Assembly: GCA_041661545.1 (NCBI GenBank)
Contig: JBAZUH010000001.1
Coordinates: 467,877 to 531,876 of the forward strand
DNA from: Candidatus Staskawiczbacteria bacterium
GTDB taxonomy: Bacteria; Patescibacteriota; Minisyncoccia; Minisyncoccales; Staskawiczbacteraceae
DNA length: 64,000 bases
Direction of reading: 5' to 3'
Of the stretch, positions 3,464-64,000 are shown one piece after another. Under the pieces are notes generated by a model. The model saw nothing but the letters and a program-made list of their open reading frames with translations, was not told the origin of the DNA and did not search any database. Both the position numbers and the translations under genes were made by a program. Each line of letters begins with the position of its first letter. Position 1 is the stretch's first letter.

Positions 3464-3548
3464 GGAGGAGTCGCATAGTGGCTATTGCACCGGTCTTGAA
3501 AACCGGAATCCTTCACAGGATTCGTGAGTTCGAGTCTCACCTCCTCCG
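3464..3548 (+). tRNA. tRNA-Ser(UGA)
   Basis: Hand-folded cloverleaf: acceptor GGAGGAG/CTCCTCC, anticodon loop CTTGAAA, long variable arm, T-loop TTCGAGT. Confidence 0.9.
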
Positions 3549-3613
3549 CCTTCGCCTCGCTGAAGCTCGGCTTCGGCGAGACAAAGTCCGCCGAGTTGAA
3601 AAAAATAAAAAAT

Positions 3614-21269: not shown

Positions 21270-22442
21270 ATGAAAATCCTATCAATAGAAACATCTTGCG
21301 ACGACACAGGAATTGCCGTTTTAGAAATCTCAAAAAATGGCGATTTTAACATTTTATCAAATATTGTTGCTTCTCAAATAAAAGTTCACCAAAAATATGG
21401 CGGGGTTTATCCTGCAATGGCAAAAAGAGAACACCAAAAAAATTTAATACCAACCTTTATTAAAGCCCTAAGAAAATCTAATTTACTAAAAAATAACGAG
21501 CTAAAACAAAATTTTGATTTTCAAAGTTTAAATAATATTTTAGAACGTGAGCCAGAACTATACAAAAACTTAGTTTCTTTTTTAAAAAAATACACAAAAC
21601 CAAACATAGATTTAATTGCTGTAACTAATGGCCCAGGTTTAGAGCCATGTTTATGGGTTGGAGTTAATTTTGCAAAAGCTATTTCTTTTGCATGGAATAT
21701 TCCCGTTGTGCCAGCAAATCATATTGAAGGTCATATTTTAGTTAACCTTCTAAACCCTAAACCCTACACCCTAAACCCTACTCTATTCCCTGCTATTGCA
21801 TTAGTGGTAAGCGGAGGTCATACGCAAATTATTTTGGTAAAAAAGATTGGCAGCTATAAAATACTTGGCGAAACAAGAGACGATGCAGCCGGAGAATGCT
21901 TTGATAAATGTGCAAAAATTTTAGGATTAGGTTATCCTGGCGGACCAATTATTGCTAAAATGGCAGAAAAAGTCGGTGGGATGTCGGACGTCCCACCGCT
22001 TCCACGCCCAATGATTAATACAAAAGATTACGATTTTAGTTTTTCTGGATTAAAAACTGCAGTTTTATACGCAGATAGAAAAGTTGACCCTTCGACACGG
22101 CTCAGGGCGAGCTATAAACGTAAAATGTCTGCCGAAGTTCAGCAAGCCATAATTGATGTTTTAATTAAAAAAACAATTAAAGCTGTAAAAGATTTTAAAG
22201 TAAAGTCTTTAATTTTAGGAGGAGGAGTTTCAGCTAATCAAGAATTAAAAAAACAATTTCAATTAGAAATTGAAAAAAATAAACTAAAAGTTAAATTAAT
22301 ATATCCAGCGCCTAATTTATCAACAGACAACGGAGCAATGATAGCAGTTGCAGGATTTTATCACCTGCCTGCCGGCAGGCAGGTAAAAAAACTCGCCAAC
22401 TGGAAAAAAATTAATGCCAATGGTAATTTACGAATAGATTAA
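21270..22442 (+). CDS. tsaD: tRNA N6-adenosine threonylcarbamoyltransferase TsaD (Kae1/Gcp)
   Basis: ILSIETSCDDTGIAV, HIEGH, VVSGGHTQI and GGGVSAN. It carries several GC-rich in-frame inserts. Confidence 0.9.
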   Translation: MKILSIETSCDDTGIAVLEISKNGDFNILSNIVASQIKVHQKYGGVYPAMAKREHQKNLIPTFIKALRKSNLLKNNELKQNFDFQSLNNILEREPELYKNLVSFLKKYTKPNIDLIAVTNGPGLEPCLWVGVNFAKAISFAWNIPVVPANHIEGHILVNLLNPKPYTLNPTLFPAIALVVSGGHTQIILVKKIGSYKILGETRDDAAGECFDKCAKILGLGYPGGPIIAKMAEKVGGMSDVPPLPRPMINTKDYDFSFSGLKTAVLYADRKVDPSTRLRASYKRKMSAEVQQAIIDVLIKKTIKAVKDFKVKSLILGGGVSANQELKKQFQLEIEKNKLKVKLIYPAPNLSTDNGAMIAVAGFYHLPAGRQVKKLANWKKINANGNLRID

Positions 22443-22445
22443 TTC

Positions 22446-24632
22446 GTGATAAAATTTAAAAATATGGAACTACCATCTTCTTATAACTCAAAAGAGGTTG
22501 AAGATAAAATTTATCAGCTTTGGGAAAAAAGCGGTTTTTTTAATCCAGACAAACTTGGCAAAAATTATAAAAAACCGTTTACAATAATAATGCCTCCAAC
22601 TAATGCCAACGGAAACTTACATGCCGGGCATGCTTTGGTTATGACAATAGAAGACATAATGACCCGCTATAAAAGAATGCAAGGTTTCAAAACTTTGTGG
22701 TTGCCAGGATTAGATCATGCTGGTTTTGAAACACAAGTAGTTTATGAAAAACAACTAGAAAAAGAAGGTAAAAGTAGATTTAAAATGACCCCCGAAGAAC
22801 TTTATAAAGAAATTGCTGAATTTACAGATAAAAATAAAAAAAATATCAATTCACAAGTAAAAAAAATGGGTTCTTCTTGCGACTGGTCACGAGAAAAATT
22901 TACATTAGATACTGATATAATAAAAATTGTTTACAATACGTTTGAAAAACTATATAAAGATAACTTAATTTATAAAGGTAAAAAAATAATAAATTGGTGC
23001 CCAAAACATCAAACTTCCCTATCAGATTTAGAAACCGCAGACACAGAAAAAAATGATAAATTTTATTATTTAAAATATGGGCCATTTACAATTGCCACCG
23101 CCCGTCCAGAAACAAAATTTGGTGATAAATATGTTGTAATGCATCCAAAAGATAAAAGATATTCAGATTATAAAAACGGTCAAAAAATAGAATTAGAGTG
23201 GATAAACGGGCCAATAACCGCCACCATTATAAAAGATGAAGCCATAGATATGGATTTTGGAACAGGAGTTATGACAATTACTCCTTGGCATGACGCCGTA
23301 GACTTTGAAATTGCCCAAAGACATACTTTAGAAAAAGAACAAATTATAGATTTTTATGGAAAACTTTTACCAATTGCAGGAGAGTTTTCTGGCATGAAAA
23401 TTTTAGAAGCCAGGCCATTAATTATTGAAAAATTACAAGCAAAAGGTTTGGTAGAAAAAATTGAAGAGAATTATAAACACGTTGTAAAAACTTGTTATAA
23501 ATGCAATTCATTAATTGAGCCTCAAATAAAAGAACAATGGTTTTTGAAAATGAAACCATTGGCTGAACCAGCTATAAAAGCCATAGAAAAAAATCAGATA
23601 AAAATTATTCCCGAGCATTATAAAAAAATTGCCCTGCATTGGCTAAATAACATTATAGATTGGAATATATCACGACAAATTGTTTGGGGCATACCAATAC
23701 CTGCAAAAACCTGCGAAAAATGTAAAGAAATTTATATTGATATTGAAAATAAATTCACAGAGTGCAAAAAATGTGGAGGAGCTCTAAAAAAAGAAACAGA
23801 TACTTTTGATACTTGGTTTTCTTCTGGGCAATGGCCTTATGCTGTTTTAGGTTTTCCAAAAAATAAAGATTTCAAAACTTTTTATCCAACCGATGTTATG
23901 GAAACCGGAGGAGATTTAATTTTCTTTTGGGTAAGCAGAATGATTATGTTTTCACTTTATAATACAGGCAAAATACCATTTAAAAATGTTTATTTGCACG
24001 GTTTGGTTATGGATGCCAAGGGGCAAAAAATGTCCAAATCTAAAGGAAATGTTATTAATCCTTTAGATTTAACGGAAAAATTTGGCACCGATGCTTTAAG
24101 AATGGCTTTAGTGGTTGGAAATACTCCTGGCACTTCCCTTCCATTAGATGAAAATAGAATAAAAGGATACAGAAATTTTGCCACAAAAATTTGGAACGCT
24201 TCAAGATTTGTATTAATGAATTTAGATGGCTACCCTTCGGCAAGCTCAGGGCAAGTAAAAATACTGTTTAGCGCAAATGACAAAAAATTAATAAGTGATT
24301 TTAAAAAACAATCAAAACAAATAACCAAAGAAATGGATGGTTTTAAATTTTATGTAGCATCAGAAAAAATATACCATTATTTTTGGCATACATTTTGCGA
24401 TAAAATTATTGAAGAGCAAAAACCACGATTATTGGGGCAAGACAAAAAAGAACGCATGGCTAGCCAGCATCTTTTAATTACCTTGCTATCTGAATCTTTA
24501 AAAATTTTACATCCCTTTATGCCTTTTATAACCGAAGAAATTTATCAACAGCTTCCTGTTAAGAACCTGCCTACCGGCAGGCAGGCAAAAAAAAGTTGCC
24601 TAATGATAGAAAATTGGCCTGCGACAAAATAA
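22446..24632 (+). CDS. valS: Valyl-tRNA synthetase (short form without the C-terminal coiled coil)
   Basis: PPTNANGNLHAGH (HIGH-type), DWNISRQIVWGIPIP and KMSKSKGN. An alternative ATG start exists at 22464. Confidence 0.9.
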   Translation: MIKFKNMELPSSYNSKEVEDKIYQLWEKSGFFNPDKLGKNYKKPFTIIMPPTNANGNLHAGHALVMTIEDIMTRYKRMQGFKTLWLPGLDHAGFETQVVYEKQLEKEGKSRFKMTPEELYKEIAEFTDKNKKNINSQVKKMGSSCDWSREKFTLDTDIIKIVYNTFEKLYKDNLIYKGKKIINWCPKHQTSLSDLETADTEKNDKFYYLKYGPFTIATARPETKFGDKYVVMHPKDKRYSDYKNGQKIELEWINGPITATIIKDEAIDMDFGTGVMTITPWHDAVDFEIAQRHTLEKEQIIDFYGKLLPIAGEFSGMKILEARPLIIEKLQAKGLVEKIEENYKHVVKTCYKCNSLIEPQIKEQWFLKMKPLAEPAIKAIEKNQIKIIPEHYKKIALHWLNNIIDWNISRQIVWGIPIPAKTCEKCKEIYIDIENKFTECKKCGGALKKETDTFDTWFSSGQWPYAVLGFPKNKDFKTFYPTDVMETGGDLIFFWVSRMIMFSLYNTGKIPFKNVYLHGLVMDAKGQKMSKSKGNVINPLDLTEKFGTDALRMALVVGNTPGTSLPLDENRIKGYRNFATKIWNASRFVLMNLDGYPSASSGQVKILFSANDKKLISDFKKQSKQITKEMDGFKFYVASEKIYHYFWHTFCDKIIEEQKPRLLGQDKKERMASQHLLITLLSESLKILHPFMPFITEEIYQQLPVKNLPTGRQAKKSCLMIENWPATK

Positions 24633-27289: not shown

Positions 27290-27318
27290 AAGCAACCGAG
27301 GGGTAGCCCCCTCAATAT

Positions 27319-27356
27319 GGGCGGTCCAACAACGATGTTGGCCGCCCCCTTTTTTT
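27319..27356 (+). terminator. Intrinsic terminator
   Basis: GGGCGGTCCAACaacgatGTTGGCCGCCCcc followed by T8. Confidence 0.8.
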
Positions 27357-27513
27357 GAGTGCGGAATATATTTTTTCCTTACCCGCACGAAACCCCTTCA
27401 CCATTTTTACTGGTGATTTTTTATTACCACAATGACAGCCGAAGGCGCTTCGCAGATATAATTTTGTATTATTTATTACACAGATGAAAATGGTGTGGGG
27501 TTGTTTCCATCTC

Positions 27514-27542: not shown

Positions 27543-27631
27543 AAAATTATTAGATGAGCATGATCGCTCATTGAAAATTCAACCAACCCCAACCACACCA
27601 ACACCAACCGCCCAAAACAGGGTATACGATT

Positions 27632-28540: not shown

Positions 28541-28563
28541 GAGGTTCTACCCCTCTCACTTAT

Positions 28564-28610
28564 GCGCCCCGAGATCGCCTAGCCAGCGAAATCGAGGGCG
28601 CCCTTTTTTT
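28564..28610 (+). terminator. Intrinsic terminator
   Basis: GCGCCCCGAGAT...ATCGAGGGCGC stem followed by T7. Confidence 0.65.
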
Positions 28611-28672
28611 AAATGAAAATCCCCAAAAATAGCGTTTTTTGACACAAAAAATGCTACCATTTTTGAGGGATA
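28611..28672 (+). repeat. Bulged hairpin repeat R1 (subfamily A)
   Basis: aaatgaaaATCCCCAAAAATAGCGTTTTTTGacaCAAAAAATGCTAccaTTTTTGaGGGAT. Confidence 0.85.
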
Positions 28673-28678
28673 AATAGG

Positions 28679-28741
28679 CATCCTTCCAAATATCGATTTG
28701 CGACACGCAAATTGATACCATTTGGGGGGATAAAATTTTTT
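28679..28741 (+). repeat. Bulged hairpin repeat R2 (subfamily B)
   Basis: CATCCTTCCAAATATCGATTTGCGacaCGCAAATTGATAccaTTTGGGGGGAT. It matches R3 at 51 of 52 positions. Confidence 0.85.
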
Positions 28742-29215: not shown

Positions 29216-29539
29216 TTATTCTACGTTAATATTAAAAGCATTTCCAACTAGATAAACTGCAGATGAAGCCACTATAATTAATATTGTTCCAATGATTGAT
29301 GCAAATAATGCTTTTTTAGCCAAAGTAAGTTTTGATGGATCGCCCAGGGCTGTTAAAAATAAAATGCCTGTTACAACCCATAAAATAACCACTATGGCCC
29401 CACCAATATAAAGCGCTAACATTACGGCTGCGTCAATCATACTTTGAATTGTTATTCCTTCTCCTTGGGCTAAAACCATTCCCGGCAAAGCTAAGACACT
29501 TAAAATAATTAGAAACAATATTTTTTTATTCATATTCAT
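29216..29539 (-). CDS. TrbC/VirB2-like small pilin paralog 2
   Basis: The start is set at MNMNKKILFLIILS, by analogy with the paralogs. Motif LTALGDPSKLTLAKKALFASIIG. Confidence 0.6.
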   Translation of the reverse strand: MNMNKKILFLIILSVLALPGMVLAQGEGITIQSMIDAAVMLALYIGGAIVVILWVVTGILFLTALGDPSKLTLAKKALFASIIGTILIIVASSAVYLVGNAFNINVE

Positions 29540-29547
29540 ATTTATAA

Positions 29548-29877
29548 TTAATAAGTTGTTAAAACTCCTCCAATTATCCATAATATAGAGTAAGCAACAA
29601 TTCCAACTACCACTCCAGCAATTCCCCAAATTAAAGCAGACTTAGCTATTTTTAATTTTGCGGGGTCACCCATTGCTGTTAAAAAGAAAATGCCCGCAAT
29701 GACAAAACAAACTAATACAATAAATGCAAATATAACCCATATAGCCCATTCTAAAGAATATATAAAATCTTCGATTGTCATTGGCTCTAGGCCGTGAGAT
29801 ATTTGACCTAAAGAAACCAAGGGCATAGCCAAGGCCCCTAAAACTATTAAAAACAATATTTTTTTATTGATATTCAT
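29548..29877 (-). CDS. TrbC/VirB2-like small pilin paralog 3
   Basis: Starts MNINKKILFLIVLG. Motif LTAMGDPAKLKIAKSALIWGIAG. Confidence 0.6.
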   Translation of the reverse strand: MNINKKILFLIVLGALAMPLVSLGQISHGLEPMTIEDFIYSLEWAIWVIFAFIVLVCFVIAGIFFLTAMGDPAKLKIAKSALIWGIAGVVVGIVAYSILWIIGGVLTTY

Positions 29878-29950: not shown

Positions 29951-30283
29951 CTACACTCCCAACGCGGCACCTATTATATTCAATATCGAGAAGGCTAAAA
30001 TTCCAACTACCACTCCAGCAATTCCCCAAATTAAAGCAGACCTTGCTGCTTGAACTTTTTCTGGTTGTCCTTGAGCTGTTAAAAATAAAATACCAGCAAC
30101 AATAAACATAATAACTGCAATAGCACCAAACACCATCCACATAAGAATTTCTATCTGCTCTATTAATTTTGGCAAATCCTGTATTGAAGCTTCTCCAGGG
30201 GGATAATTTTTATCAAGAGCAAAAACTACAACTGGTAAAGTTAGTGCGGTGACTAAAATTGAATTTAATGTAAATTTATTCAT
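29951..30283 (-). CDS. TrbC/VirB2-like small pilin paralog 4
   Basis: Motif LTAQGQPEKVQAARSALIWGIAG. A long hairpin (core CCCCGCTAAGCGGGG, about 29893..29925) lies downstream. Confidence 0.6.
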   Translation of the reverse strand: MNKFTLNSILVTALTLPVVVFALDKNYPPGEASIQDLPKLIEQIEILMWMVFGAIAVIMFIVAGILFLTAQGQPEKVQAARSALIWGIAGVVVGILAFSILNIIGAALGV

Positions 30284-30295
30284 TTTTTAGATAAA

Positions 30296-30347
30296 CATCC
30301 TCCCAAATATCGATTTGCGACACGCAAATTGATACCATTTGGGGGGA
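30296..30347 (+). repeat. Bulged hairpin repeat R3 (subfamily B)
   Basis: CATCCTCCCAAATATCGATTTGCGacaCGCAAATTGATAccaTTTGGGGGGA. Its minus strand reads ...TTTGGGAGGATG, 13 nt upstream of the start of pilin paralog 4. Confidence 0.85.
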
Positions 30348-30393
30348 ATATTTCTACTTATTTTTATAATTTGTGTAATCGACCTTTATAAAA

Positions 30394-31024: not shown

Positions 31025-33715
31025 CTAGTCTTTGAGGCATGCCCCCGATGCAACTTTGTCTCCTTCATCTAATCTCATTATTCTAACTCCTTGGGTATCT
31101 CGCCCTAAAAGAGATATAGACTTTATACTTGTTCTTATAACTTGCCCTTGCTGAGAAATAACAATTAAATCTTCCTCTTCTGCTACATCTTCTACAATAG
31201 CCGACATAATAATATGGCCTGTTTTGCTTGTTATTTTTGCTGTTTTAATTCCCGAGCCTCCCCTGCCTTGAGTTTTATATTGCCCAATATCTGTTCTTTT
31301 ACCATAACCATTTTCCATAACAATCAAAAAATATTTCTTTATTTTTTTTCCTTTGTCCGCCGTAGCTTCAGCGGAGGAGGATACAACATCCATTCCAATT
31401 ACTTCATCACCCTTTTTCAAACTAATACCTTTAACCCCGGCAGCTCCTCGGCCCATTGGTCTTATATCTTTTTCTTTAAATCTAATAGAAATTCCATTTT
31501 TAGTTGCTAAAATTAGGTCATCTTCACCAGTTGTTTTAACAACTTTTTTTAACGCATCTCCTTTTTCTAATTTTATAGCAATAATTCCACTTTTTCTAAC
31601 ATTTTCAAATTCTGACAAATCAGTTTTTTTGATTCTGCCATTTTTTGTAATCATTACCAAAAATTTATCTCCGCTTTGTTGCCTGGCTTGCCCCGCCGTA
31701 GCTTTAGCGGAGGAGGGCATTGGAATTAATGACAAAACTTTTTCTTCGTTTGATATTTCTAAAAAGTTTAGCAAACCTCGGCCACGAGCAACTCTATTGC
31801 CTTCTGGTATTTCATAAACTTGTGTTTGAAAAACTTTTCCAGAATCAGTAAAAAACATTAAATTATCATGGGTTGAAGCAGTCAAAAAGTGCTCTACAAT
31901 ATCATCTTGCATTGTTTTCATACCCATTAAACCCTTTCCTCCTCGTTTTTGTAATTTATAAGTAGCTGGATTTATTCTTTTTATGTAACCGCCTGTAGTT
32001 AAAGTTATAATTGTTTCTTCTAGTGGAACCAAATCAACTTCGGTAATTTCTCCCAGTTTCCCTTTAACAACTTTTGTTTTTCTTTTATCACCAAACTTTT
32101 CTCTTATATCTAAAAGCTCTTTTTTGATAATGGCTTTTAATTTTTCTGGACTTTTTAAAATAGCCAATAATTCTTTTATTGCTTCTAAAATTGCTTTTAG
32201 TTCGTCTTCTATTTTTTTTCTTTCTAATCCTGCTAATGTTTGCAACCTCATTTCTAAAATTGCTACTGCTTGCCTTTCGGTTAATTTAAATTTTTTAATT
32301 AAATTAGCTCTTGCTTCTTCTTTATCTGCAGATTTTTTAATTGTTTGAATAACTGCATCAATGTTTTTTAATGCAATCATTAAACCCTCTAATATATGGG
32401 CTCTTTCTTTGGCTTTTTCTAAATCAAATTGTGTTCTGCGAGTAACAACCTCTTCTCTGTGTTTAATAAAATATTTTAAAACATCGGCCAAAGATAAAAT
32501 TTCTGGCTGAATGCCATCTACTAATGCCAACAAATTTAAGTGAAAAGTTTTTTGAAGGCTAGTAAACTTGTATAATCTATTTAAAATTCTTTGTGGCTGA
32601 TAGCTTTTTTTAACATCAATTACAATGCGCATGCCTTCTCTGTCAGATAAATCTCTTATATCTTTTATTCCCTCAACCTTTTTTTCAGAAACCAATTCTG
32701 CCATTTGCTCTACCAAAGTAGATTTTAAAACTTGATAAGGAATTTCTGTAATTATAATTTGTTCTGCTCCATCTTTTTTTTCTACAACATCTGCTTTTCC
32801 ACGCATTAAAATAGCCCCCTTACCCTGAGAATAAGCAGTAATTATTTCTTTTTGGTCATAAATTATACCACCAGTTGGAAAATCAGGGCCCTGCACAAAT
32901 TCAAACAAATCTTCTGTTTCTGCTTTTGGGTGCTCTAGCACATATATAGAGGCATCAACAACTTCGGTTAAATTATGAGGTGGAATATTTGTTGCCATGC
33001 CAACGGCAATGCCCAAAGAACCATTTAAAAGCAATTGTGGCAATGGACTTGGCAAAACAGTTGGCTCGGTTGTCATGCCGTCATAGTTGTCAACAAATTT
33101 TACAGTATCTTTTTCAATATCTTTTAACATTTCGTCTCCTAGCTTTGTTAGCCTACATTCTGTATACCTAGCAGCAGCAGCTCCATCACCATCTATAGAA
33201 CCAAAGTTTCCTTGGCCATCTACCAATGTGTATCGCATATTAAAATCTTGCGCCATACGCACCAAACTTTCATAAACAGCTGTATCACCATGAGGGTGAT
33301 AACTTTTCAAAACCTCTCCAACTACCGCCATAGACTTTCTGTGTTTTGTGTTAGACCTTAAACCAGATTGCATCATTGCATATAAAATTCTTCTGTGAAC
33401 TGGTTTTAAACCATCTCTAACATCGGGCAGAGCACGTGCAACAATAACCGACATTGCATAATCAATGTATGATTCTTTAAGCTCGGTTACCATTTCGCGC
33501 TGAGTCACATTTCCCCTATTACTGTCGCCATGTTTTCCATCTTCTTGAGCTTTAGCCCTCGATTTTTTTTCTTCGCCCTTTTCTTCCTTATCTCCCTTTT
33601 CTTCACTTTTTTCATCCTTCTCCTCGGCTTCCTCGCCCGCCGAAGCCTCGGCGGAGGCTGGGTCTATTTCATCGTCAAGCTCCTCGTTAGATTTTGATTT
33701 TTTTATTTTGGCCAT
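31025..33715 (-). CDS. gyrA: DNA gyrase subunit A
   Basis: YAMSVIVARALPDVRDGLKPVHRRILY and C-terminal beta-pinwheel repeats. There is an acidic N-terminal extension and three in-frame GC-rich hairpin inserts. Confidence 0.95.
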   Translation of the reverse strand: MAKIKKSKSNEELDDEIDPASAEASAGEEAEEKDEKSEEKGDKEEKGEEKKSRAKAQEDGKHGDSNRGNVTQREMVTELKESYIDYAMSVIVARALPDVRDGLKPVHRRILYAMMQSGLRSNTKHRKSMAVVGEVLKSYHPHGDTAVYESLVRMAQDFNMRYTLVDGQGNFGSIDGDGAAAARYTECRLTKLGDEMLKDIEKDTVKFVDNYDGMTTEPTVLPSPLPQLLLNGSLGIAVGMATNIPPHNLTEVVDASIYVLEHPKAETEDLFEFVQGPDFPTGGIIYDQKEIITAYSQGKGAILMRGKADVVEKKDGAEQIIITEIPYQVLKSTLVEQMAELVSEKKVEGIKDIRDLSDREGMRIVIDVKKSYQPQRILNRLYKFTSLQKTFHLNLLALVDGIQPEILSLADVLKYFIKHREEVVTRRTQFDLEKAKERAHILEGLMIALKNIDAVIQTIKKSADKEEARANLIKKFKLTERQAVAILEMRLQTLAGLERKKIEDELKAILEAIKELLAILKSPEKLKAIIKKELLDIREKFGDKRKTKVVKGKLGEITEVDLVPLEETIITLTTGGYIKRINPATYKLQKRGGKGLMGMKTMQDDIVEHFLTASTHDNLMFFTDSGKVFQTQVYEIPEGNRVARGRGLLNFLEISNEEKVLSLIPMPSSAKATAGQARQQSGDKFLVMITKNGRIKKTDLSEFENVRKSGIIAIKLEKGDALKKVVKTTGEDDLILATKNGISIRFKEKDIRPMGRGAAGVKGISLKKGDEVIGMDVVSSSAEATADKGKKIKKYFLIVMENGYGKRTDIGQYKTQGRGGSGIKTAKITSKTGHIIMSAIVEDVAEEEDLIVISQQGQVIRTSIKSISLLGRDTQGVRIMRLDEGDKVASGACLKD

Positions 33716-38103: not shown

Positions 38104-38207
38104 TAAACTAGCTCATTTACTCATATAACGTTTTGATAAACACCGTCAGCCTACAGACACCCAACAAACCAACAACACCAACAACCGCCCGCAAGGGCCC
38201 TACCAAA

Positions 38208-39716
38208 GTGAAAGCAACCAAAAAAGCCGCGAAACAAGCGGCAGACACCAACGCCGTGCAAGCGGCGCCCGCAGAAGAAACCACCCCCGTGGTGGCCACC
38301 AAGACCAAGCCAGTTGCCAAGGGTGGCGCGAAAGCCCGCCCCAAAACGACTGTGCTCAGCAGTGCCAACTCCAACCCGTTCGCCAACTTGGGTGACGCCT
38401 TGACCGAATTGAGCCTCGGCGTGCCCGACCTCGACTCGCTCGCCGACGTTGACAGCGTTGGGCAAGGCCTCGAGGCCAAGAAGGCCGCCGCCGTCAAAGT
38501 GCGCGAAGGCATCGCCAATGCCCTCAAGTTCCTGCTTGGTCTTTTCCGCCGGCTTGCCGGTTGCGAAGACCGCATCGAGAAGCGGTTCATCCAGGAGGAG
38601 CTCCAAGAGTCGGAAGACAATGCCCGGGGTTACTTGGGCAAAGTGCTCAACCTCAAGGGCGCCCTCCGCACCATCGCCGCCGGCACGTACCTCAAAACCG
38701 TGCTCACCATGGACTACTCCTCGCCCGACGAGGTCGCCATGATGCTCCGGAATTTGGTGGACAATGGGCTCATCGTCTCCAAGGGTGAAGGCCCCTGCGT
38801 GACCATTGGGTATCAGGTGTATCGCCTTGGTGACTTCGGCTTCGACGCCGAGGATGTCAGGGAAATCACCGGCGTGATTGAGCAGTTCTCCCGCGTGGTG
38901 AAAACGAAGGAACGCGAACGGAGGGCGCAACTCCAGAAGGAAATCGCGGGGCAATCCCAGATTTCCCTGCAAGAAGCGCTTGACGGGAAAACCGGCAAAT
39001 GCCTGGTGACTGTTCCGGCCGAATCGTTCATCGACCGCTCCACCAAAAAGCCCGTGTGGCGTGGAGGTGGCGAGGTCCTATTCGACTTTGCCGACAAGCT
39101 CATCAAACCAATCCGCGCCAGCGGGTCGGTGGAACGCTTGGTCGGCGACCTCGCTGACCGTGGTGGGAGAATCACCCGCCACTCGCTTACGTGGGAGAAG
39201 GCCTCCGGACTGAACGGACTGGCGCAGGGCATCCAGCGGAAACTGGATGTCTCATGGAGTGATGCCCAGGATTTGGCCCGCGACTTCCTCACCATTTGGC
39301 ACCTCCTCAACCGTGGCATTCGCCACGCCGAGGAAGTCGTCAAGCAGGCTGACGAGCTGGCCCAACTGACTGCGAAGGCCGAGATCACCGCCGTGCAGTT
39401 CTTCGGGCTCAACGGCACCAAGGACGGCAAGCCCATCGAGGGCAAGCCTGCTCTCCTGCAACTCCAGGGAGTGGTCCGCTTGGAGGACCGCAACCTGTAC
39501 AATCCGTTCTTTCTCGCCAGGAGGATGACGGAAGAAGGCAAGGAGCTCGTCGAGGCGCTGGAAATTCCGGCATACCTCGAGGGATACCTTGAAACCGGGA
39601 AGAAATTCCCAATCGATCGCTGGAACACCCCTGTCGGCGACCTGATTCAAAAGATCAAGGGGCAAACCGAGATGACTGTCGCGACCGCGGCCGCCATCGC
39701 CAACCCGGCCGAGTGA
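38208..39716 (+). CDS. GC-rich protein of unknown function with a Lys/Ala-rich (histone H1-like) N-terminus
   Basis: The long ORF opens at a TTG at 38133. GTG at 38208 is favoured because the CCAAC-rich leader plus AAGGG resembles the leader of 27632. Amino-acid composition is balanced on the + strand. The minus-strand ORFs are GC artefacts. Confidence 0.7.
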   Translation: MKATKKAAKQAADTNAVQAAPAEETTPVVATKTKPVAKGGAKARPKTTVLSSANSNPFANLGDALTELSLGVPDLDSLADVDSVGQGLEAKKAAAVKVREGIANALKFLLGLFRRLAGCEDRIEKRFIQEELQESEDNARGYLGKVLNLKGALRTIAAGTYLKTVLTMDYSSPDEVAMMLRNLVDNGLIVSKGEGPCVTIGYQVYRLGDFGFDAEDVREITGVIEQFSRVVKTKERERRAQLQKEIAGQSQISLQEALDGKTGKCLVTVPAESFIDRSTKKPVWRGGGEVLFDFADKLIKPIRASGSVERLVGDLADRGGRITRHSLTWEKASGLNGLAQGIQRKLDVSWSDAQDLARDFLTIWHLLNRGIRHAEEVVKQADELAQLTAKAEITAVQFFGLNGTKDGKPIEGKPALLQLQGVVRLEDRNLYNPFFLARRMTEEGKELVEALEIPAYLEGYLETGKKFPIDRWNTPVGDLIQKIKGQTEMTVATAAAIANPAE

Positions 39717-39763
39717 TCGGCCACCCTCGTAGAGCTGACTCAACCAGTTAGCCTGCGACCTAT

Positions 39764-39807
39764 GGGGATGTGCGCGTAGCAATACGCGTGCATCCCCCCT
39801 TTTTTTG
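39764..39807 (+). terminator. Strong intrinsic terminator
   Basis: GGGGATGTGCGCGTAgcaaTACGCGTGCATCCCCcc followed by T7. Confidence 0.85.
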
Positions 39808-39813
39808 CACAGG

Positions 39814-39866
39814 CATCCTCCCAAATAGCATTTTTTGACACAAAAAATGTTACCATTTGGGGGGAT
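39814..39866 (+). repeat. Bulged hairpin repeat R4 (subfamily B)
   Basis: CATCCTCCCAAATAGCATTTTTTGacaCAAAAAATGTTAccaTTTGGGGGGAT. Confidence 0.85.
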
Positions 39867-39952
39867 TTTTCATTTATAGAAGACTTTCGTATAATATTTG
39901 AATAAATTTAAAAATTATGATAAACTATATTTATTAATACAGAAAAAAATAT

Positions 39953-41948: not shown

Positions 41949-42021
41949 GGGCGCATAGCTCAGTTGGTAGAGCGCGGAGCTTATACCTCCGTGGTCCTAG
42001 GTTCGAGTCCTAGTGCGCCCA
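41949..42021 (+). tRNA. tRNA-Ile(UAU)
   Basis: Acceptor GGGCGCA/TGCGCCC, anticodon stem-loop CGGAG-CTTATAC-CTCCG (anticodon TAT). Confidence 0.8.
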
Positions 42022-42032
42022 CTCGTTAATTC

Positions 42033-43275: not shown

Positions 43276-43341
43276 AATATTGCTTTTACAAACAATATGG
43301 CGGACTTTGTCTCGCCGTAGGTTCGCTACGGCGAACCGTAG

Positions 43342-43422
43342 GCGGACGTGGCGAAATGGCATACGCACTACCTTGAGGTGGTAGCGCCGCAAGGCATGAG
43401 GGTTCGACTCCCTCCGTCCGCA
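43342..43422 (+). tRNA. tRNA-Leu(GAG)
   Basis: Acceptor GCGGACG/CGTCCGC, anticodon stem-loop CTACC-TTGAGGT-GGTAG, long variable arm. Confidence 0.9.
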
Positions 43423-43762: not shown

Positions 43763-43925
43763 AAAGAAAAAAATCCAGAGTATTTCTGGTTTTTTTTATT
43801 TGATTGAGCAGAATCGAACTGCAGGATGGGGTCGGGAAGGAGACATCCTTCCCGTATAGGAAATTATTCAAAACCGAGGGTTTTGAAAGAGCGAAGCGAC
43901 AAGTTCCATTTCTGCTCACCCGCTC
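43763..43925 (-). mobile_element. Miniature insertion bounded by a 16-nt direct repeat of the tRNA-Gly(GCC) 3' end; conserved structured core, copy A
   Basis: TTCTGCTCACCCGCTC occurs at 43747..43762 and 43910..43925. The interior holds a terminator hairpin, an inverted T-arm fragment (43805..43824), hairpin CGGGAAGGAgacaTCCTTCCCG (43833..43854) and hairpin TTCAAAACCgagGGTTTTGAA (43867..43887). Confidence 0.6.
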
Positions 43926-44007: not shown

Positions 44008-44041
44008 GACACAGAGCCCTTTCTATGCTAATATATACCCA
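44008..44041 (+). promoter_or_regulatory. Putative promoter of the 3D-domain gene
   Basis: TTGACA, a 17-nt spacer, then TAATAT. An SD-like AAGGGAG lies upstream of the ATG at 44067. Confidence 0.55.
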
Positions 44042-44066
44042 TACTTCCGAAAGGGAGTTTTTAATT

Positions 44067-44561
44067 ATGAATACATTAAAACACGTAAAAAATAGCCTTG
44101 CTTTAGTGGTCAAAACCCGCTTAGCTGGCTCTATATTTGCAAGCATTGTAATTGCTATTTGCGCTGTAGGCATAATCTTGCCTCAAGCCATATATGCTGA
44201 CCCTGCCAATACAGCAAGCGCTTCTTATGTGGCAAAAAATAGTAATGAGATAAAATCAAATGCTATTAAAACTATCAAGGTTAAGGTTACTGCTTATTCA
44301 AGCACTGCAGACCAAACTGATGATACTCCCTTTATAACCGCCTCAGGTAAAAGGGTAAAAGATGGTATAATAGCAAACAACTTATTACCTTTTGGAACAA
44401 AAATTAAAATTCCAAAATTATATGGTGATAAAATATTTACCGTGCAAGATAGAATGAATAAAAAGAAAGGCAACTTCCATATAGATATATGGATGCCAAC
44501 TAGAGGATTGGCACTTAACTTTGGATCCAAAACTGCTGAGATATTAGTTCTAGCAGATTAA
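44067..44561 (+). CDS. 3D-domain (MltA/RlpA-like fold) secreted cell-wall protein
   Basis: VTAYSSTADQTDDTPFITASGKRVKDGIIANNLLPFGTKIKIP...FTVQDRMNKKKGNFHIDIWM. The start is set at MNTLKHV because the upstream ATG at 44025 lies inside the promoter. Confidence 0.8.
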   Translation: MNTLKHVKNSLALVVKTRLAGSIFASIVIAICAVGIILPQAIYADPANTASASYVAKNSNEIKSNAIKTIKVKVTAYSSTADQTDDTPFITASGKRVKDGIIANNLLPFGTKIKIPKLYGDKIFTVQDRMNKKKGNFHIDIWMPTRGLALNFGSKTAEILVLAD

Positions 44562-44608: not shown

Positions 44609-44776
44609 GTGCCCGAGGCGGGACCGCTACGCTAGAACCCGTCGCTCTGCTCCTTCAAAACCCTCGGTTTTGAATAATTTCCTACACGGGAGGAAATGCT
44701 TTCCTCCCGACCCCTCCTTGGGGTTCGACTCCCGCACATTTAAAAAGAACACTATAAATAGTGTTCTTTTTTAATG
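44609..44776 (+). mobile_element. Miniature insertion bounded by a 15-nt direct repeat of the tRNA-Leu(UAA) 3' end; conserved structured core, copy B
   Basis: GTGCCCGAGGCGGGA occurs at 44609..44623 and 44777..44791. Hairpins TTCAAAACCctcGGTTTTGAA (44654..44674) and CGGGAGGAAAtgcTTTCCTCCCG (44687..44709), a T-arm fragment at 44720..44737 and a terminator hairpin at 44741..44773. Confidence 0.6.
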
Positions 44777-45652: not shown

Positions 45653-45679
45653 TCCAGGCACATTGTCTGGATTTTTTTT
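45653..45679 (+). terminator. Intrinsic terminator
   Basis: TCCAGgcacattgtCTGGA followed by T8. Confidence 0.75.
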
Positions 45680-45740
45680 AAATGAATATCCCCAAAAATA
45701 GCGCTTTTCGTCACGAAAAGTGCTACCATTTTTGAGGGAT
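45680..45740 (+). repeat. Bulged hairpin repeat R5 (subfamily A)
   Basis: aaatgaatATCCCCAAAAATAGCGCTTTTCGtcaCGAAAAGTGCTAccaTTTTTGaGGGAT. Confidence 0.85.
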
Positions 45741-49303: not shown

Positions 49304-50320
49304 GGATTTTTTTTGGAAATTTTTAATTACCTTTCTAGCCTCTTTAGTGTTTTTTACTTTCATAAGTTGGTCGCGCAAGTCTTTGGCACCATAGAAACCT
49401 TTTGTATAGGCGTGAAAATGTTTTTTTAAGCTCTCAAATCTTTTATAATGGCCATTTATTACTTTTTCGTCTTTGTGTAATTTATCGAAAATTTCCGCAT
49501 GCTCTATTATAGCTTTTAATCTTTCTTTTACACTGGGGAACCCCACTTCGCCAAGGCTTCGCGGAGCAAAGAACCACGGGTCACCAATAAGCGCCCTACC
49601 TATCATAATGCCATCTAAGTTTAAGTCTTTAGCCATTTTTTTAGCTTGCTTTAAAGATTTAACATCGCCATTTCCAATAATTAAAGTTTCTGGTGAATAT
49701 TTATCGCGCAATTTTAATATTTCTTTAGCTAATTCCCAATTAGCACTGGTTGCATAAGTATCATTTCTAGTTCTAAAATGAACAGTTAAAACAGCTGGCT
49801 GTTCTTTTAAAATTTCTGGAATCCATTCTTTAATCTGATTTTTATTATAGCCAATTCTTGTTTTCACAGAAACCGGCATGCTAACCTGTTTACCCTGAGC
49901 GCCTCGAAGGGCGCCCCGTTTAGTTGCTCTTATAATTTCTCTGGCCAAACTAGGACTTTTAATTAATGCTGCCCCTGCCCCCTTATTTTCTATAGCCCTG
50001 TCTGGGCACCCCATATTAATATCAATGCCGTCAAAACCCAACTCTTGCATTAAGCAAGCTGATTTTTCAAAGCATAGCGGGTCAGATCCAAATAATTGAG
50101 CTACAATAGGTTTTTCTTTTCTAGAAAATTCTAAAACTTTCATACAAAACTTTCTCCCCCTTGGATGAAGCAACCCTTCAGCTGAAGCAAATTCTGTCCA
50201 AAAAACATTGGGCCTGCCATACTTTAAAAGCATAAGGCGAAAAGCTTCGTCTGTTACCCCAGACATTGGGGCCATTACCATAATTGGCTTCTTTAATTTT
50301 TTCCAAAATCCTAATTCCAT
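49283..50320 (-). CDS. dus: tRNA-dihydrouridine synthase
   Basis: MAPMSGVTDEAFR, DINMGCP and the TIM-barrel flavin pattern. It carries two GC-rich in-frame inserts. Confidence 0.9.
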   Translation of the reverse strand: MELGFWKKLKKPIMVMAPMSGVTDEAFRLMLLKYGRPNVFWTEFASAEGLLHPRGRKFCMKVLEFSRKEKPIVAQLFGSDPLCFEKSACLMQELGFDGIDINMGCPDRAIENKGAGAALIKSPSLAREIIRATKRGALRGAQGKQVSMPVSVKTRIGYNKNQIKEWIPEILKEQPAVLTVHFRTRNDTYATSANWELAKEILKLRDKYSPETLIIGNGDVKSLKQAKKMAKDLNLDGIMIGRALIGDPWFFAPRSLGEVGFPSVKERLKAIIEHAEIFDKLHKDEKVINGHYKRFESLKKHFHAYTKGFYGAKDLRDQLMKVKNTKEARKVIKNFQKKSSTTDGI

Positions 50321-51523: not shown

Positions 51524-52408
51524 TTATATAGAAAATTTTCCTAATTTTGTTCTTTTAATAGAAAAAGCTAAGGCTGGTATACCAATTTTTTCTCCCAAAG
51601 AGTTGGCTATTGCCCGCATATAAGTTCCGCTTGTGCATTTTATTCTAAAATCCGCAACATAAAATATATTTCTATTACACAACTTTTTTTTCCAAATTCT
51701 TAATATTTCTTTTTGCCTAAAATCACCTTTTACTTTTTTAATCCTTTTCTCAATATTTTCTAGTAATTTTTTATTATTAATTTTTCTAATTTTTTCTAAA
51801 TTTATTTTTTTAATAAGAATATTTCTTTCTGGAATCTCAACATCCTCTCCGCTTCTTGCATAACTAAAAAGGGGTTTTCCCTTTACTGTTTTAGAAGAAT
51901 AAATGGGATATTTTTGTTTTAATTTACCTTTAAAATATTTTAAATTCTTTTTTATAAGCGAGCCAAATAAATTTTTGCCCGAAGCGAGATAATGAATTCG
52001 AAGCGTACCCTGCAGGCAATTTTGTTTGGTCCCGCGAAGCGGGAAAATTGCCGAAGCCTGAGTGAGCCCGCGCTGGTGGGCGAACGCTAGCGGAGAATCA
52101 TTATCGAGCAAAGAAAAGAACTCATTGCCGAGCGGCCTTTCGACGACTTTTCCTAAAATATCATACGTGTCTGTGCTAAAACCAAACAAAACACTAAAAT
52201 TATACTCTTTATCTAAAGCTAAATATTTTTCTTTATTTTTTGCTTCTTCTCCAGCCAACAAAACTAACACCCCACTAGCCATTGGGTCTAACCTGCCAGC
52301 ATAAGTTATGGGTATATTAAAATATTTAGGATTTTTCTTCCTAAAGTTTTCAAGAGCAGAAAGAGGCGTCTCTCCTTCTTTTTTATTTAGTATAATTACT
52401 TTTTTCAC
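51524..52408 (-). CDS. truB: tRNA pseudouridine-55 synthase TruB with a GC-rich insertion of about 45-58 aa
   Basis: GRLDPMASGVLVLL and YPIYSSKTVKGKPLFSYARSG. The insert spans about 51965..52138. Confidence 0.85.
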   Translation of the reverse strand: MKKVIILNKKEGETPLSALENFRKKNPKYFNIPITYAGRLDPMASGVLVLLAGEEAKNKEKYLALDKEYNFSVLFGFSTDTYDILGKVVERPLGNEFFSLLDNDSPLAFAHQRGLTQASAIFPLRGTKQNCLQGTLRIHYLASGKNLFGSLIKKNLKYFKGKLKQKYPIYSSKTVKGKPLFSYARSGEDVEIPERNILIKKINLEKIRKINNKKLLENIEKRIKKVKGDFRQKEILRIWKKKLCNRNIFYVADFRIKCTSGTYMRAIANSLGEKIGIPALAFSIKRTKLGKFSI

Positions 52409-61938: not shown

Positions 61939-61967
61939 AAAAAACCGCCCGAGAGGGCGGTTTTTTT
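61939..61967. terminator. Bidirectional intrinsic terminator
   Basis: aaaaaaCCGCCCgagaGGGCGGttttttt. Confidence 0.85.
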
Positions 61968-62086
61968 GTTTAGCTTGAGCGAGGCAATGAGATTTTTCGA
62001 AGCTTGTTGTGCGAAGCGAATAAGTGCGTAGAAAAATTTTATTGCCGAGCGAAGAAAATAGCAAAACATTGAAAACCAGGAGGTCT

Positions 62087-64000
62087 CTAAGGTGCTATGT
62101 ATCTAATAATAAGTTTAGGATGTTGAGTGGCTGTTGCTGCTTCACCAGAAGCAAATTGTTCACCATCACCAGTAGCCAAATCAGTTGCCTCAAGCAACCA
62201 TCCATAATTAGTATATGTTCCACTAACCCATCCCTGAACAGTTGCAAGGCTCATGTTATTCCTAACAGTAGCAACAATAGTATCAAGAGTAATTCCATTA
62301 CGATTATCTTCAGCAGTAGCAGCCTCAACATCATCATTATCAACTCCAGCAGTCAAAGAGTTATAAGTGCTACTTTCATTCCAATCAACAAGCATTCTAT
62401 GTATCTTCCAACCCTGACCTTCGGTTGATATGTATAAATCTAATTCAACGCCAACTATTGTTGACCCAGCTGGAATACTTGAAATATCAAATTTAAGAAG
62501 ACCCTTGCGCTGATCAGTTTCAACTCCAACAGCTGGGTCTACAACAAATGAAGTTGCTGTGCCATAATCAACAGCTGGATTTGTATCCCAAATATATGTA
62601 TCTAAAGTTCCAGCATATCCTGCTGTTGGGTACACACCATCTTGAAACGTGACAGTAGTTGGCGTTCCTGATAACCTGTTATATTTAAACAAAGGATAAC
62701 GTGTGGCGGTAGAGCCCTCAGTAGAAACATATTCTGATGCTGTATAATAATTCTCACCATTATAATCAAAAGTAACTGCTTCGCCTTGAGGTTCTTGAGA
62801 AGGATGAGATCTTCTAAAAGTTGTAGAACCACCACCAACATATCCGTCAACAGTTGTTGGAGTTGCTTGTAAAGCTTGCATAATTGTTTGCGTATTTTTA
62901 TCGCGAGAGAATAAATACATTACGTTATAACTTTTTACAAGTATTTCTTTGCCACTAGGAGAAATGTTACCTCCCACAGCATTACCAGTTGCAGACACAG
63001 ATGCAAAATCGGGAATATCATACATATCTCCCAAATCAGTCATTGTTTGAGTTCCAGCATAACTTGCAGCATGAGCTAAATAATAGACGCCAGGAACAGC
63101 TTCTCGTTTTGTAATAACATACATATCACCCGTGTCAGGATCAACTAAAAGAGTTTCTGCATCTTTATGCGGGGGCAAACTTCCTGCTGGATATTCCATA
63201 GTAATTGTTTCAATATCTTCAACAGGAACAGTGTCATTGCTACCTGTTACTGCTGGTTCTTTTATCCTATAAATAATTATGGTGCTTCTTGCATTAGCAT
63301 TGTCGCCAAAATCAGCTAAATAAATATATGACTGACTATTTACTCTTGCACTAGATAAATCTTCATAATCAACTCCATTAATACCAGTCAATGTCCATTC
63401 TCCTTGATTAGAAGCATTAACCGTAGAAACAGCAAAAAGCTTATCAACAGAACCATCAGATTGCATCCATAAATAAGAAGAATTGGCAACTAAGGTTGAT
63501 TGGGTGATACCACTAATCTCCTGCCAATCTGCTGTTGAAGTTAAATTTCCTACTGATGCACCATCTGCCCAATAAGGAAGATAATCTGTCGCAGGAAATA
63601 CAGCTGTAATCACTCCAGAGTCAGCAGAATTTGTAGCTGATCCAGTTGTGCCAGCAATTGTAAATTGATTTTCAGTTACACCTGTTAAAGTATATCCCTC
63701 TGTGGCAGTAAGACTAATTGTAGCAGTGTAAACTGTGGCTGGAGCAAAAGTTACAGGGTCTCCATTCCAAGTAACAGTGCCCGTATAGCCTGTGCCAGCA
63801 GTAACAGTTGTTACTGGCGTAGCACCAGTAACAGGAGGCGTGACTCCAGCAATGGCTGTGGCAGAGATAATGGTGGCGGCGGTCGCAGGAAATACAGCTG
63901 TAATCACTCCAGAGTCAGCAGAATTTGTAGCTGATCCAGTTGTGCCAGCAATTGTAAATTGATTTTCAGTTACACCTGTTAAAGTATATCCCTCTGTGGC
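62087..64000 (-). CDS. Large secreted/surface protein (5' end outside the window): 98-aa repeats, a central beta-propeller-like region and a C-terminal DNRLRE-like domain
   Basis: The frame is open to the window edge. The ITAVFPAT...TGYTGTVTWNGDPVTF repeat unit is present at least twice (294-nt period). The C-terminus has DQRKGLLKFDISSIPAGSTIVGVELDLY, as in DNRLRE-type domains. Confidence 0.75.
   Translation of the reverse strand, partial: ATEGYTLTGVTENQFTIAGTTGSATNSADSGVITAVFPATAATIISATAIAGVTPPVTGATPVTTVTAGTGYTGTVTWNGDPVTFAPATVYTATISLTATEGYTLTGVTENQFTIAGTTGSATNSADSGVITAVFPATDYLPYWADGASVGNLTSTADWQEISGITQSTLVANSSYLWMQSDGSVDKLFAVSTVNASNQGEWTLTGINGVDYEDLSSARVNSQSYIYLADFGDNANARSTIIIYRIKEPAVTGSNDTVPVEDIETITMEYPAGSLPPHKDAETLLVDPDTGDMYVITKREAVPGVYYLAHAASYAGTQTMTDLGDMYDIPDFASVSATGNAVGGNISPSGKEILVKSYNVMYLFSRDKNTQTIMQALQATPTTVDGYVGGGSTTFRRSHPSQEPQGEAVTFDYNGENYYTASEYVSTEGSTATRYPLFKYNRLSGTPTTVTFQDGVYPTAGYAGTLDTYIWDTNPAVDYGTATSFVVDPAVGVETDQRKGLLKFDISSIPAGSTIVGVELDLYISTEGQGWKIHRMLVDWNESSTYNSLTAGVDNDDVEAATAEDNRNGITLDTIVATVRNNMSLATVQGWVSGTYTNYGWLLEATDLATGDGEQFASGEAATATQHPKLIIRYIAP

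Follow-up and report, generated by a model that had tools for sequence, protein, structure and literature searches.

Host gene and architecture of the insertion

The stretch analysed here, a 64,000-nt segment of a Candidatus Staskawiczbacteria genome (hereafter, the window), is AT-rich (36.5% GC overall) and carries on its minus strand a truB gene, encoding the tRNA pseudouridine-55 synthase, into which a GC-rich palindromic segment is inserted in frame. The features on which the argument rests are the following.

51524..52408, minus strand: truB (tRNA pseudouridine-55 synthase), the host gene, a 294-aa open reading frame (ORF)
51958..52134, minus strand: the whole truB insertion, 177 nt or 59 codons (TruB residues 92-150), 52% GC
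51983..52110, minus strand: the core element, 128 nt, a full-length family member (covariance model R1, 146 bits, E=1e-43, model positions 1-129)
52111..52134, minus strand: outer (shell) 5' arm, sense CGCTCGGCAATGAGTTCTTTTCTT
51958..51982, minus strand: outer (shell) 3' arm, sense TCGGGCAAAAATTTATTTGGCTCGC
61978..62051, minus strand: short intergenic relative, 74 nt, second-best match of R1 in the window

The ORF matches Pfam TruB_N (PF01509; E=1.4e-29, in two separate stretches) and the NCBIfam TruB equivalog TIGR00431 (E=4.9e-37), contains the catalytic GRLDP motif and retains every invariant column of an alignment of 24 TruB sequences (A1). Orthologs are mostly 245-256 aa long, and A1 places the extra residues of the present protein between DTYDILGKV and IKKNLKYFKGK. 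The linker at this position spans 78 aa, whereas most of the 82 related loci compared, all of them from species-representative genomes, have 28-35 aa, and when the protein is compared with Escherichia coli TruB (1r3f), residues 93-156 align to chain residues 101-112 only. The insertion, in which the 128-nt core is nested between the two shell arms, stands out against the remainder of the gene (27% GC), with local GC of 0.57-0.60 across 52000..52149 versus 0.16-0.30 in the flanks. Close relatives hold differing inserts at the identical spot.

An AlphaFold2 model of TruB has a confident core (mean predicted local distance difference test score, pLDDT, of 76.5), whereas residues 105-142 fall below 50; because of these low scores, the insert, of which GLTQASAIFPLR is an example peptide, is predicted to form a disordered excursion. 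The original prediction, made from the letters of the window, had called an in-frame, GC-rich insertion of about 58 aa in a normally short TruB linker and had asked whether it might form an excluded loop. Alignment A1, the 82 linkers and the comparison with 1r3f uphold the insertion, the AlphaFold2 model agrees with a disordered loop and the peptide quoted at the time corresponds to residues ~94-148 of the ORF, although its bounds (51965..52138) give way to 51958..52134 as derived here. Where that reading would have suffered from a homologous domain of similar length in orthologs, the ortholog inserts turned out to be the same DNA repeat in other frames.

A dispersed family of palindromic elements

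A query derived from the six-frame translation of the insert matched two TruB proteins and two MnmA proteins, P0121 (E=1e-4) and P0122, and the DNA of the two mnmA genes confirmed that they contain copies of the element, in other frames. The exact 20-mer AAATTGCCTGCAGGGTACGC, common to these four copies (two in truB, two in mnmA), was then used for a family search and matched 24 JGI metagenome loci. Complete copies measure 126-131 nt, apart from one of 164 nt, and the genic ones are 128, 129, 129, 128 and 130 nt long. One genic copy (L100) lies antisense within a gene for a radical-SAM methylthiotransferase (best score MiaB), between its two domains, and is probably translated there. The core is 84-90% identical in the unrelated mnmA and MiaB-like genes and at ~18 intergenic sites of other genomes. 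Most copies occupy short intergenic gaps, either beginning 0-20 nt past the stop codon of a gene with the same orientation or immediately preceding such a gene; the adjoining genes include lepA, fusA, eno, pgk, glyA, iscS-nifU, groEL, hisS, rplL, nusG and murB. Co-orientation with neighbouring genes holds at ~17 of 18 intergenic sites (binomial test run on 17/19: p=0.0007). One contig (L086) contains two copies, of different subtypes, with 6 kb between them, and R1 finds one full copy and one short relative within the window. No copies were detected in the viral contigs scanned or in 79 other truB loci, and when 1.84 billion representatives were searched by phmmer with the frame-b peptide, only spurious tandem-repeat proteins came up.

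Judged by its sequence, the 128-nt core thus belongs to a family of uniform length that is represented in several genomes of the candidate phyla radiation (CPR), in at least three protein-coding genes and at ~18 intergenic sites, and that has conserved termini and a conserved internal core. Given that the window derives from a metagenome-assembled genome (MAG) and that the segment is repetitive, one might suspect that a repeat was misjoined into truB during assembly. However, the element occupies the same truB position in the independent assembly GCA_026395215.1, the mnmA copies are found in assemblies from ENA, JGI and Logan and the truB reading frame is intact, so that the probability of an artefact is negligible.

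Other short intergenic elements have the same tips (GCTCG...CTCGC) and a long terminal stem enclosing unrelated interiors (L086, 15080..15217; L091, 3560..3658; L083, 16573..16627), which suggests a superfamily having only its ends in common.

One DNA sequence read in several frames

The truB insert is free of stop codons in the used frame only, with one to three stops in each of the other five frames; shuffled versions remain open 11% of the time. Reading the window insert in frame +2 gives SVRPPARAHSGFGNFPASRDQTKLPAGYASNSL, which another Staskawiczbacteria genome has as the in-frame insert of its ortholog, P0087. By DNA alignment, the two truB genes contain the same core, but indels in the flanks shift the frame in which each gene enters it. 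A second type of insert occupies this truB position in other orthologs and uses each of the three frames (P0009/P0007/P0020, P0006 and P0005, respectively). Indels in two of the helices described below, P2 and P4, scramble the frames between copies of the element, so that a concatenated six-frame peptide profile was abandoned. Genic copies of the element use three or more reading frames, including one in antisense, and the frame of the host always continues.

The core is also more similar between genomes at the DNA level than the gene around it. The window and L083 truB copies share 102 of 114 core positions, compared with 164 of 210 and 330 of 429 positions in the flanking coding DNA (Fisher p=0.0014 for 102/114 versus 494/639), and overall the core is 86-90% identical to the L083 copy versus 77-78% for the flanks.

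From such comparisons, the truB insert is a DNA element rather than a protein domain. A lineage-specific TruB domain or functional loop under amino-acid selection would account for an insert kept open and in frame in two Staskawiczbacteria genomes, but these two genomes use different frames and hence encode unrelated peptides, which already refutes it; moreover, the same DNA is found intergenically, the modelled insert is disordered and its peptide is not notably basic (net charge +2). We regard this explanation as extremely improbable. The more specific idea of a basic RNA-binding loop is, for the same net charge, unsupported for the window copy.

A covarying four-helix fold

A structure of four helices, P1-P4, was tested on an alignment of 19 copies (A2). 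In the window copy, the helices lie as follows.

52095..52105, minus strand: P1 5' arm, sense GATAATGATTC, pairing with 51988..51999
51988..51999, minus strand: P1 3' arm, sense GAATTCATTATC
52066..52081, minus strand: hairpin P2, sense GCCCAC-CAGC-GCGGGC; variable stem and invariant loop, CAGC
52015..52052, minus strand: P3, the stem enclosing P4, GGCAATTTT / AAAATTGCC
52031..52043, minus strand: hairpin P4, sense CCCGC-TTC-GCGGG; the stem covaries and the loop is UUCG-like

Standard pairs make up 96.3% of the 708 cells of A2, and 17 of the 39 pairs are changed on both sides (78 cells); none of 500 shuffles was as good, and partners slid along the alignment pair in at most 50% of cells. Covariation is seen in three helices, namely P1 (the terminal stem), P2 (a side hairpin) and P4 (the apical hairpin), whereas P3 is invariant across A2, allows no covariation test and was partly fixed by the search pattern. 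The 12-bp P1 is present in every copy, with double changes in 9 of its 12 pairs, and its arm sequences differ except at the tips, GCTCG and CTCGC. In all copies, the base of P1 consists of GC, a 2x2 UC/UC bubble and GC, and it is because of this bubble that the tips read as a 'direct' CTCG at both ends. Between the window and L083 truB copies, five P1 pairs are changed on both sides, four of them still being standard pairs, and the T-A pair that closes P3 at its inner end is replaced in L083, in a compensatory manner, by C-G. The RNAalifold pairing for P2 (CGCU.G.G with CCAGCG) was dropped in favour of the covarying hairpin with the CAGC loop.

Homologous shell arms flank the inserts of L001, L003, L084 and L085 as well as the intergenic copies L097 and L109; the last of these, which lies upstream of groEL, has the same P1 arms as the window copy and the same arrangement of the outer 5' arm. 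The two strands of the window core give folds of about equal quality, and the 231-nt region folded as one RNA is uninformative (z=-0.97). In Rfam, the window has no match at the gathering score and 51900..52200 nothing relevant at E up to 10. An arm-motif regular expression returned 9 inverted pairs versus 0.15 expected, a result that we discount as circular because the pattern was derived from the same elements; a simpler tip expression gives 0.5 chance matches per window.

A short relative in the same window

The relative at 62 kb is placed between the stop codon of a minus-strand gene (62087..63907) and a bidirectional terminator (61939..61966). Model R1, which was built without this element and run over the whole window with filters off, ranks it second after truB (17.2 bits and E about 0.007, E-values from R1 being approximate); the match rests on the termini CGCUCGGCAA... 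/ ...UUGCCUCGCU. The two elements share the termini CGCTCGGCAAT... / ...ATTGCCTCGCT and the UC/UC bubble, and the interior of the 62-kb element retains CGCTTCGC, from the P4 loop region, and GCTTCGAA, from the junction preceding the 3' arm, in the same order and on the same strand. The 62-kb element consequently looks like an internally shortened member of the family, and its arms may be classed with the outer arms of the truB insert. The 62-kb element folds to -31.1 kcal/mol on the plus strand (z=-6.1) versus -13.8 on the opposite strand.

That the truB insert is related to this palindrome had been proposed from three shared k-mers, and the relationship is upheld by the R1 match, the shared termini and the colinearity of the k-mers. 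All three k-mers are real: ATTGCCGAGCG occurs only at 52124 and 62041, TTCGAAGC only at 51997 and 61996, and GCGAAGCG at 52034 and 62011 but also at 1768 and 43891; two of the coordinates first given were off by one. On their own, they are not significant. A blastn-short search of the insert and the 62-kb element against the window returned only an 11-mer (E=2.3), and the local-alignment score of the pair ranks third in the window; we rejected both as proof of kinship, being too weak. The three k-mers are, however, colinear in both elements, and their chain score of 27 was matched by only 1 of 5064 control segments.

Genic copies are most likely translated

In all five genic copies, the host ORF runs unbroken through the element into the conserved downstream domain. 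By chance, each such state would be expected at about 2/9 (a sense frame open in ~2/3 of cases, times 1/3 for the frame being kept). As the genic copies are always open and in frame, we infer that they are read through, and they are most likely translated and not excised.

One could envisage that the insert is instead removed, by intron-like RNA excision or by translational bypassing, yielding a TruB protein that lacks it. The element is compact and stable, GC-rich within an AT-rich gene and has conserved ends, and mobile GC-rich inserts in yeast mitochondrial genes are known to be bypassed by ribosomes. Nevertheless, all five genic states are open in the host frame although most of their lengths (128-130 nt) are not divisible by three, an excision along the model boundaries would destroy the frame in three of the five cases, and the Rfam searches described above gave no group I, group II or ribozyme match. 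With neither an Rfam match, in the window or at E up to 10 in 51900..52200, nor a discontinuous ORF, the insert does not resemble an intron or a self-cleaving ribozyme, and its removal appears very improbable indeed.

The truB linker as a hot spot for palindromes

Across 84 Paceibacteria loci, the best perfect hairpin stem in the truB linker averages 6.6 bp versus 4.9 bp in control segments of the same gene; linker stems reach 21 bp, and the linker beats every control of its own gene in 22 of the 84 loci. One linker palindrome, GCTAGGCAAGACCTAGC (read ARQDLA), recurs in another gene of several genomes. The site therefore gathers whichever hairpin repeat a lineage carries.

Perfect palindromes with 12-21-bp stems and unrelated sequences were observed in the truB linkers (~10259-10400) of L041, L054, L026, L060, L014 and others; an example is TCTCATTCTTACATTCTC|GAGAATGTAAGAATGAGA, which is translated on both arms.

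The abundance of unrelated perfect palindromes in the linkers of many lineages, the nested structure and repeated arm motifs of the window insert and the compensated arm changes at orthologous sites could be explained if palindromes grew in place at a fragile truB site, through template switching or hairpin-primed repair and with no transposition. This cannot be reconciled with the same 128-nt sequence being 84-90% identical in mnmA, the MiaB-like gene and ~18 intergenic sites, for which an independent origin in place is impossible. Growth in place is thus largely refuted for the core and, as an account of the insert, very unlikely; it could still contribute to the turnover of the arms.

Origin and maintenance of the insert

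That the element is a multi-copy, structure-constrained repeat able to reside in genes is firmly supported. We consider it probable that a permissive loop of TruB tolerates the insert as a selfish palindromic repeat, and the best explanation is an element comparable to a miniature inverted-repeat transposable element (MITE) or a Rickettsia palindromic element (RPE), nested in an older, shorter relative of the same superfamily. The combination of variable, covarying arms with conserved tips and interior suggests that a folded single strand, of DNA or RNA, is recognized. Under such a scenario, the element would spread as DNA via an enzyme that recognizes the folded strand, with the GC, UC/UC bubble, GC arrangement at the base of P1 being the likely recognition feature; it would land in the insertion-tolerant surface linker of truB, a palindrome hot spot across the class, and would be transcribed and translated with TruB as a disordered loop of ~59 residues, selection merely keeping it stop-free and in frame. 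Insertion specific to one strand and selection acting on the RNA would each fit the orientation bias.

Several observations weigh against this scenario. No transposase, target-site duplication or same-ended partner of insertion sequence (IS) size was found in about 1.6 Mb. The arms vary and the interior is conserved, the reverse of a classical MITE, in which the transposase reads conserved terminal repeats. Much of the interior conservation is over-estimated, because the metagenome copies were found with an exact 20-mer and this pattern fixes part of P3. Each genome may have few copies, given one full and one short copy in 64 kb and none in the 79 truB loci. Translation of the insert is deduced from the continuity of the reading frame. 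Finally, the placement of ~17 of 18 intergenic copies, co-oriented and 0-20 nt past stop codons, fits an RNA role at least as well as selfish DNA.

Such a role could be that of a structured RNA useful to the host, as a stabilizer in the 3' untranslated region or between cistrons, a processing signal or a protein-binding site, that was multiplied in the genome and whose genic copies are by-products. The co-oriented copies follow the stop codons of highly expressed housekeeping genes (fusA, lepA, eno, pgk, glyA and iscS) or lie upstream of groEL, the interior is strongly conserved, three helices covary and the core is better conserved than the flanking coding DNA. The sense strand also has more G-U than A-C cells (43:12), but the bias is not significant once one invariant pair is set aside (24:12, p=0.065). 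Furthermore, Rfam contains no match, promoter and terminator signals are not above chance, the 62-kb relative has by far its better fold on the opposite strand, the MiaB-like gene tolerates a copy in antisense, the neighbouring genes have no function in common and the orientation bias could equally come from strand-specific insertion combined with gene-strand bias. On balance, a host-useful RNA is the main, though unlikely, alternative to the tolerated selfish repeat.

Separate short repeats and other features of the window

Shorter GC-rich patches in dus, tsaD and valS had originally been considered relatives of the truB insert. The repeats and insertions found there are as follows.

22088..22107, plus strand: 20-nt repeat CCCTTCG-N4-5-GCTCAGGG in tsaD, read PSTRLRA
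24233..24251, plus strand: the same repeat in valS, read PSASSGQ
49886..49911, minus strand: the same repeat in dus (copy at 49893..49911), overlapping an 8-codon insertion
49541..49558, minus strand: 6-codon GC-rich insertion SLGEVG in dus, found in this genome only in the alignment of Dus orthologs

The three copies of the 20-nt repeat compare with 0.00 expected in the window and are read in differing frames; another copy is present in truB of the relative L001 (2439-2457). The 8-codon dus insertion, LRGAQGKQ, is common to L001 only and missing in three other orthologs. In tsaD, the segment 21974..21998 is a separate small palindrome, and the flagged patches amount to just 2-4 additional residues compared with E. 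coli TsaD. The GC-rich repeats and insertions are real, including the six codons at 49541..49558, but they have no detectable kinship to the truB element: R1, run over the whole window, detects none of the dus, tsaD and valS bits. We treat the 20-nt repeat as a family apart.

A third family of in-frame hairpins was observed, a GC-rich palindrome of 20-22 nt, ACCTGCCTGCCGGCAGGCAGGT, in recG (6330-6351), tsaD (22363-22384) and valS (24566-24585), where it is read in one and the same frame as LP(A/T)GRQ. TsaD residues 74-108 (21489-21593) are an AT-rich insertion of 35 residues relative to E. coli TsaD, lying between two aligned segments and absent from the original prediction. The gyrA gene holds three GC-rich hairpins, CCGCCGWAGC...GCGGAGG (31357-31380, 31663-31700 and 33637-33654), and related 56-nt segments adjoin the genes for tRNA-Ser and tRNA-Leu (3537-3592 and 43299-43354); the two segments are mutually 77% complementary, with a perfect inverted match of 19 nt. 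An intergenic repeat of 60-68 nt occurs in five copies, two of them in tandem (28604-28730, 30282-30349, 39800-39867 and 45673-45740), with an internal palindrome, TAGCGTTTTTTGACACAAAAAATGCTA, and the terminal sequence TTTGGGGGGA; three copies lie directly after GC-rich blocks or pilin-like genes.

The GC-rich blocks in question, of 60-64% GC in a genome of 36% GC, number three (25543-27359, 27582-28609 and 38158-39824); one encodes a LysM-domain protein, the ORFs of the other two are without a Pfam match, and both strands have open ORFs. The blocks may be outliers in composition or DNA acquired from elsewhere. The segment 28797-31068 contains four small paralogous genes in tandem, all of which share internal DNA repeats (families D17 and D18); three weakly match a pilin-like conjugal-transfer family (Mbov_0395) and the fourth, 29216-29629, does not. 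Between two tRNA clusters, inverted repeats of 57 nt that are 89% complementary (43850-43906 and 44635-44691) bracket a 730-nt segment with a 178-aa ORF (44025-44561) that has no family match; this may be a small invertible or mobile cassette. ARAGORN identified a tRNA-Ile with anticodon TAT at 41949-42022, which is unusual in bacteria, where AUA is normally decoded by a lysidine-modified CAT tRNA.

A possible link to tRNA-acting enzymes and wider implications

All three gene hosts of the core element, TruB, MnmA and the MiaB-like protein, are tRNA-modification enzymes, and in the window, four of the five tRNA-acting enzymes (truB, dus, tsaD and valS) contain a GC-rich repeat versus 2 of the 52 other ORFs (Fisher p about 2e-4, post hoc). 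It is conceivable, although we consider it quite unlikely, that the element is an orientation-specific structured RNA module spreading in CPR genomes, whose insertion or retention in genes is tied to RNA-binding enzymes. If so, there would be a targeting mechanism linked to the genes of tRNA enzymes, or the enzymes would bind hairpins in their own mRNAs, and the hairpins of the truB linker, with their unrelated sequences across Paceibacteria, would be the clearest case. A mimic of the tRNA T-arm for autoregulation by TruB was looked for by eye and rejected, as UUCGAAU is present but has no closing stem.

The CPR, or Patescibacteria, have tiny, streamlined genomes that are usually thought to be poor in repetitive DNA, and a full-text literature search returned no description of palindromic repeats within their genes. 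The present case indicates that hairpin repeats repeatedly colonize conserved housekeeping enzymes of these bacteria, and one DNA sequence that is apparently translated in several frames offers a clear natural case of non-coding DNA giving rise to protein loops. The family has a well-defined 129-nt fold with strong covariation that is not in Rfam. Inserts of this type inflate and distort alignments of CPR proteins, and likewise phylogenetic markers and predicted structures, and the covariance model of the family can be used for masking or studying them. The orientation bias or the preference for tRNA enzymes, if real, would point to a new mechanism of mobilization or regulation.

Comparison with known systems

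Several known systems share features with the element. The present element would resemble the repetitive extragenic palindromic (REP) sequences and bacterial interspersed mosaic elements mobilized by REP-associated tyrosine transposases (RAYT), as well as palindromic elements derived from IS200/IS605, if its mobility or recognition depended on a hairpin of single-stranded nucleic acid and not on terminal repeats in double-stranded form; a strand-specific orientation would be expected in that case. REPs, however, are 20-40 nt long, extragenic and have a GTAG head, whereas the element measures 128 nt, has the tips GCTCG / CTCGC and is found within genes. The ends of IS200/IS605 form separate subterminal hairpins that are not mutually paired, and the gene lists of the loci neighbouring the copies contain no Y1/HUH transposase gene. 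The GC clusters and 'byp' elements of yeast mitochondria are likewise short, GC-rich, hairpin-forming mobile inserts in protein genes of a very AT-rich genome; byps are skipped by the ribosome, so that openness and frame are not needed, whereas the truB-type element is always open and in frame, which argues for read-through translation. Integron attC sites, which are imperfect palindromes immediately 3' of a cassette ORF, with R''/R' core sites (GTTRRRY) and a nearby integrase, resemble the element in their position after stop codons and their structural conservation but differ from it in that its tips are GCTCG / CTCGC, its interior is conserved in sequence and its neighbours are core housekeeping genes.

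Classical bacterial MITEs, such as ERIC, Correia/CREE, BOX, RUP and Nezha, are small, dispersed elements with terminal complementarity that reside in transcribed intergenic DNA and occasionally in genes (PMC10969869; PMC2229807). The element shares with them the small size, the terminal complementarity, the dispersal, the presence of both intergenic and genic copies and the nesting of copies. At 126-131 nt, it is well within the limit of ~500 bp, it has no conserved ORF and contains stops in several frames, and the 12-bp P1 of every copy provides terminal inverted repeats, although the arm sequences vary beyond the tips. As to several copies within one genome, contig L086 has two and the window one full copy and one short relative. 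The element differs from MITEs in that its terminal repeats are conserved over only 5-6 nt per tip and that its length is very uniform. The flanks of ~18 copies show no variable direct repeat beyond the conserved tips, so that any target-site duplication would have to be as short as 1-2 nt. A search for matching ends spaced 0.4-3.5 kb apart in the ~1.6 Mb of loci and the window, a small fraction of each genome, turned up no parent IS.

RPEs are palindromic repeats of ~100-150 bp, often found in frame in unrelated genes, each of which encodes a conserved peptide; in a small AT-rich genome, they occupy intergenic regions and housekeeping genes, adding a peptide that does not destroy the protein, and no transposase is known for them (PMC10969869). 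That review cites Ogata et al. (2000, 2002). The element is, similarly, a palindromic repeat within the ~100-150-bp range that is found in frame in protein genes and in intergenic DNA. The host phylum here is Patescibacteria/CPR, and the likeness is one of properties; whereas the peptide of an RPE is conserved, the same DNA is here read in at least three frames, one of them antisense. The present element is further distinguished by terminal arms that vary and covary around a conserved interior, by the strong orientation bias of its intergenic copies and by being GC-rich within an AT-rich host. RPEs are the closest analogue of the truB element, which we regard as analogous to them without assigning it as a member.

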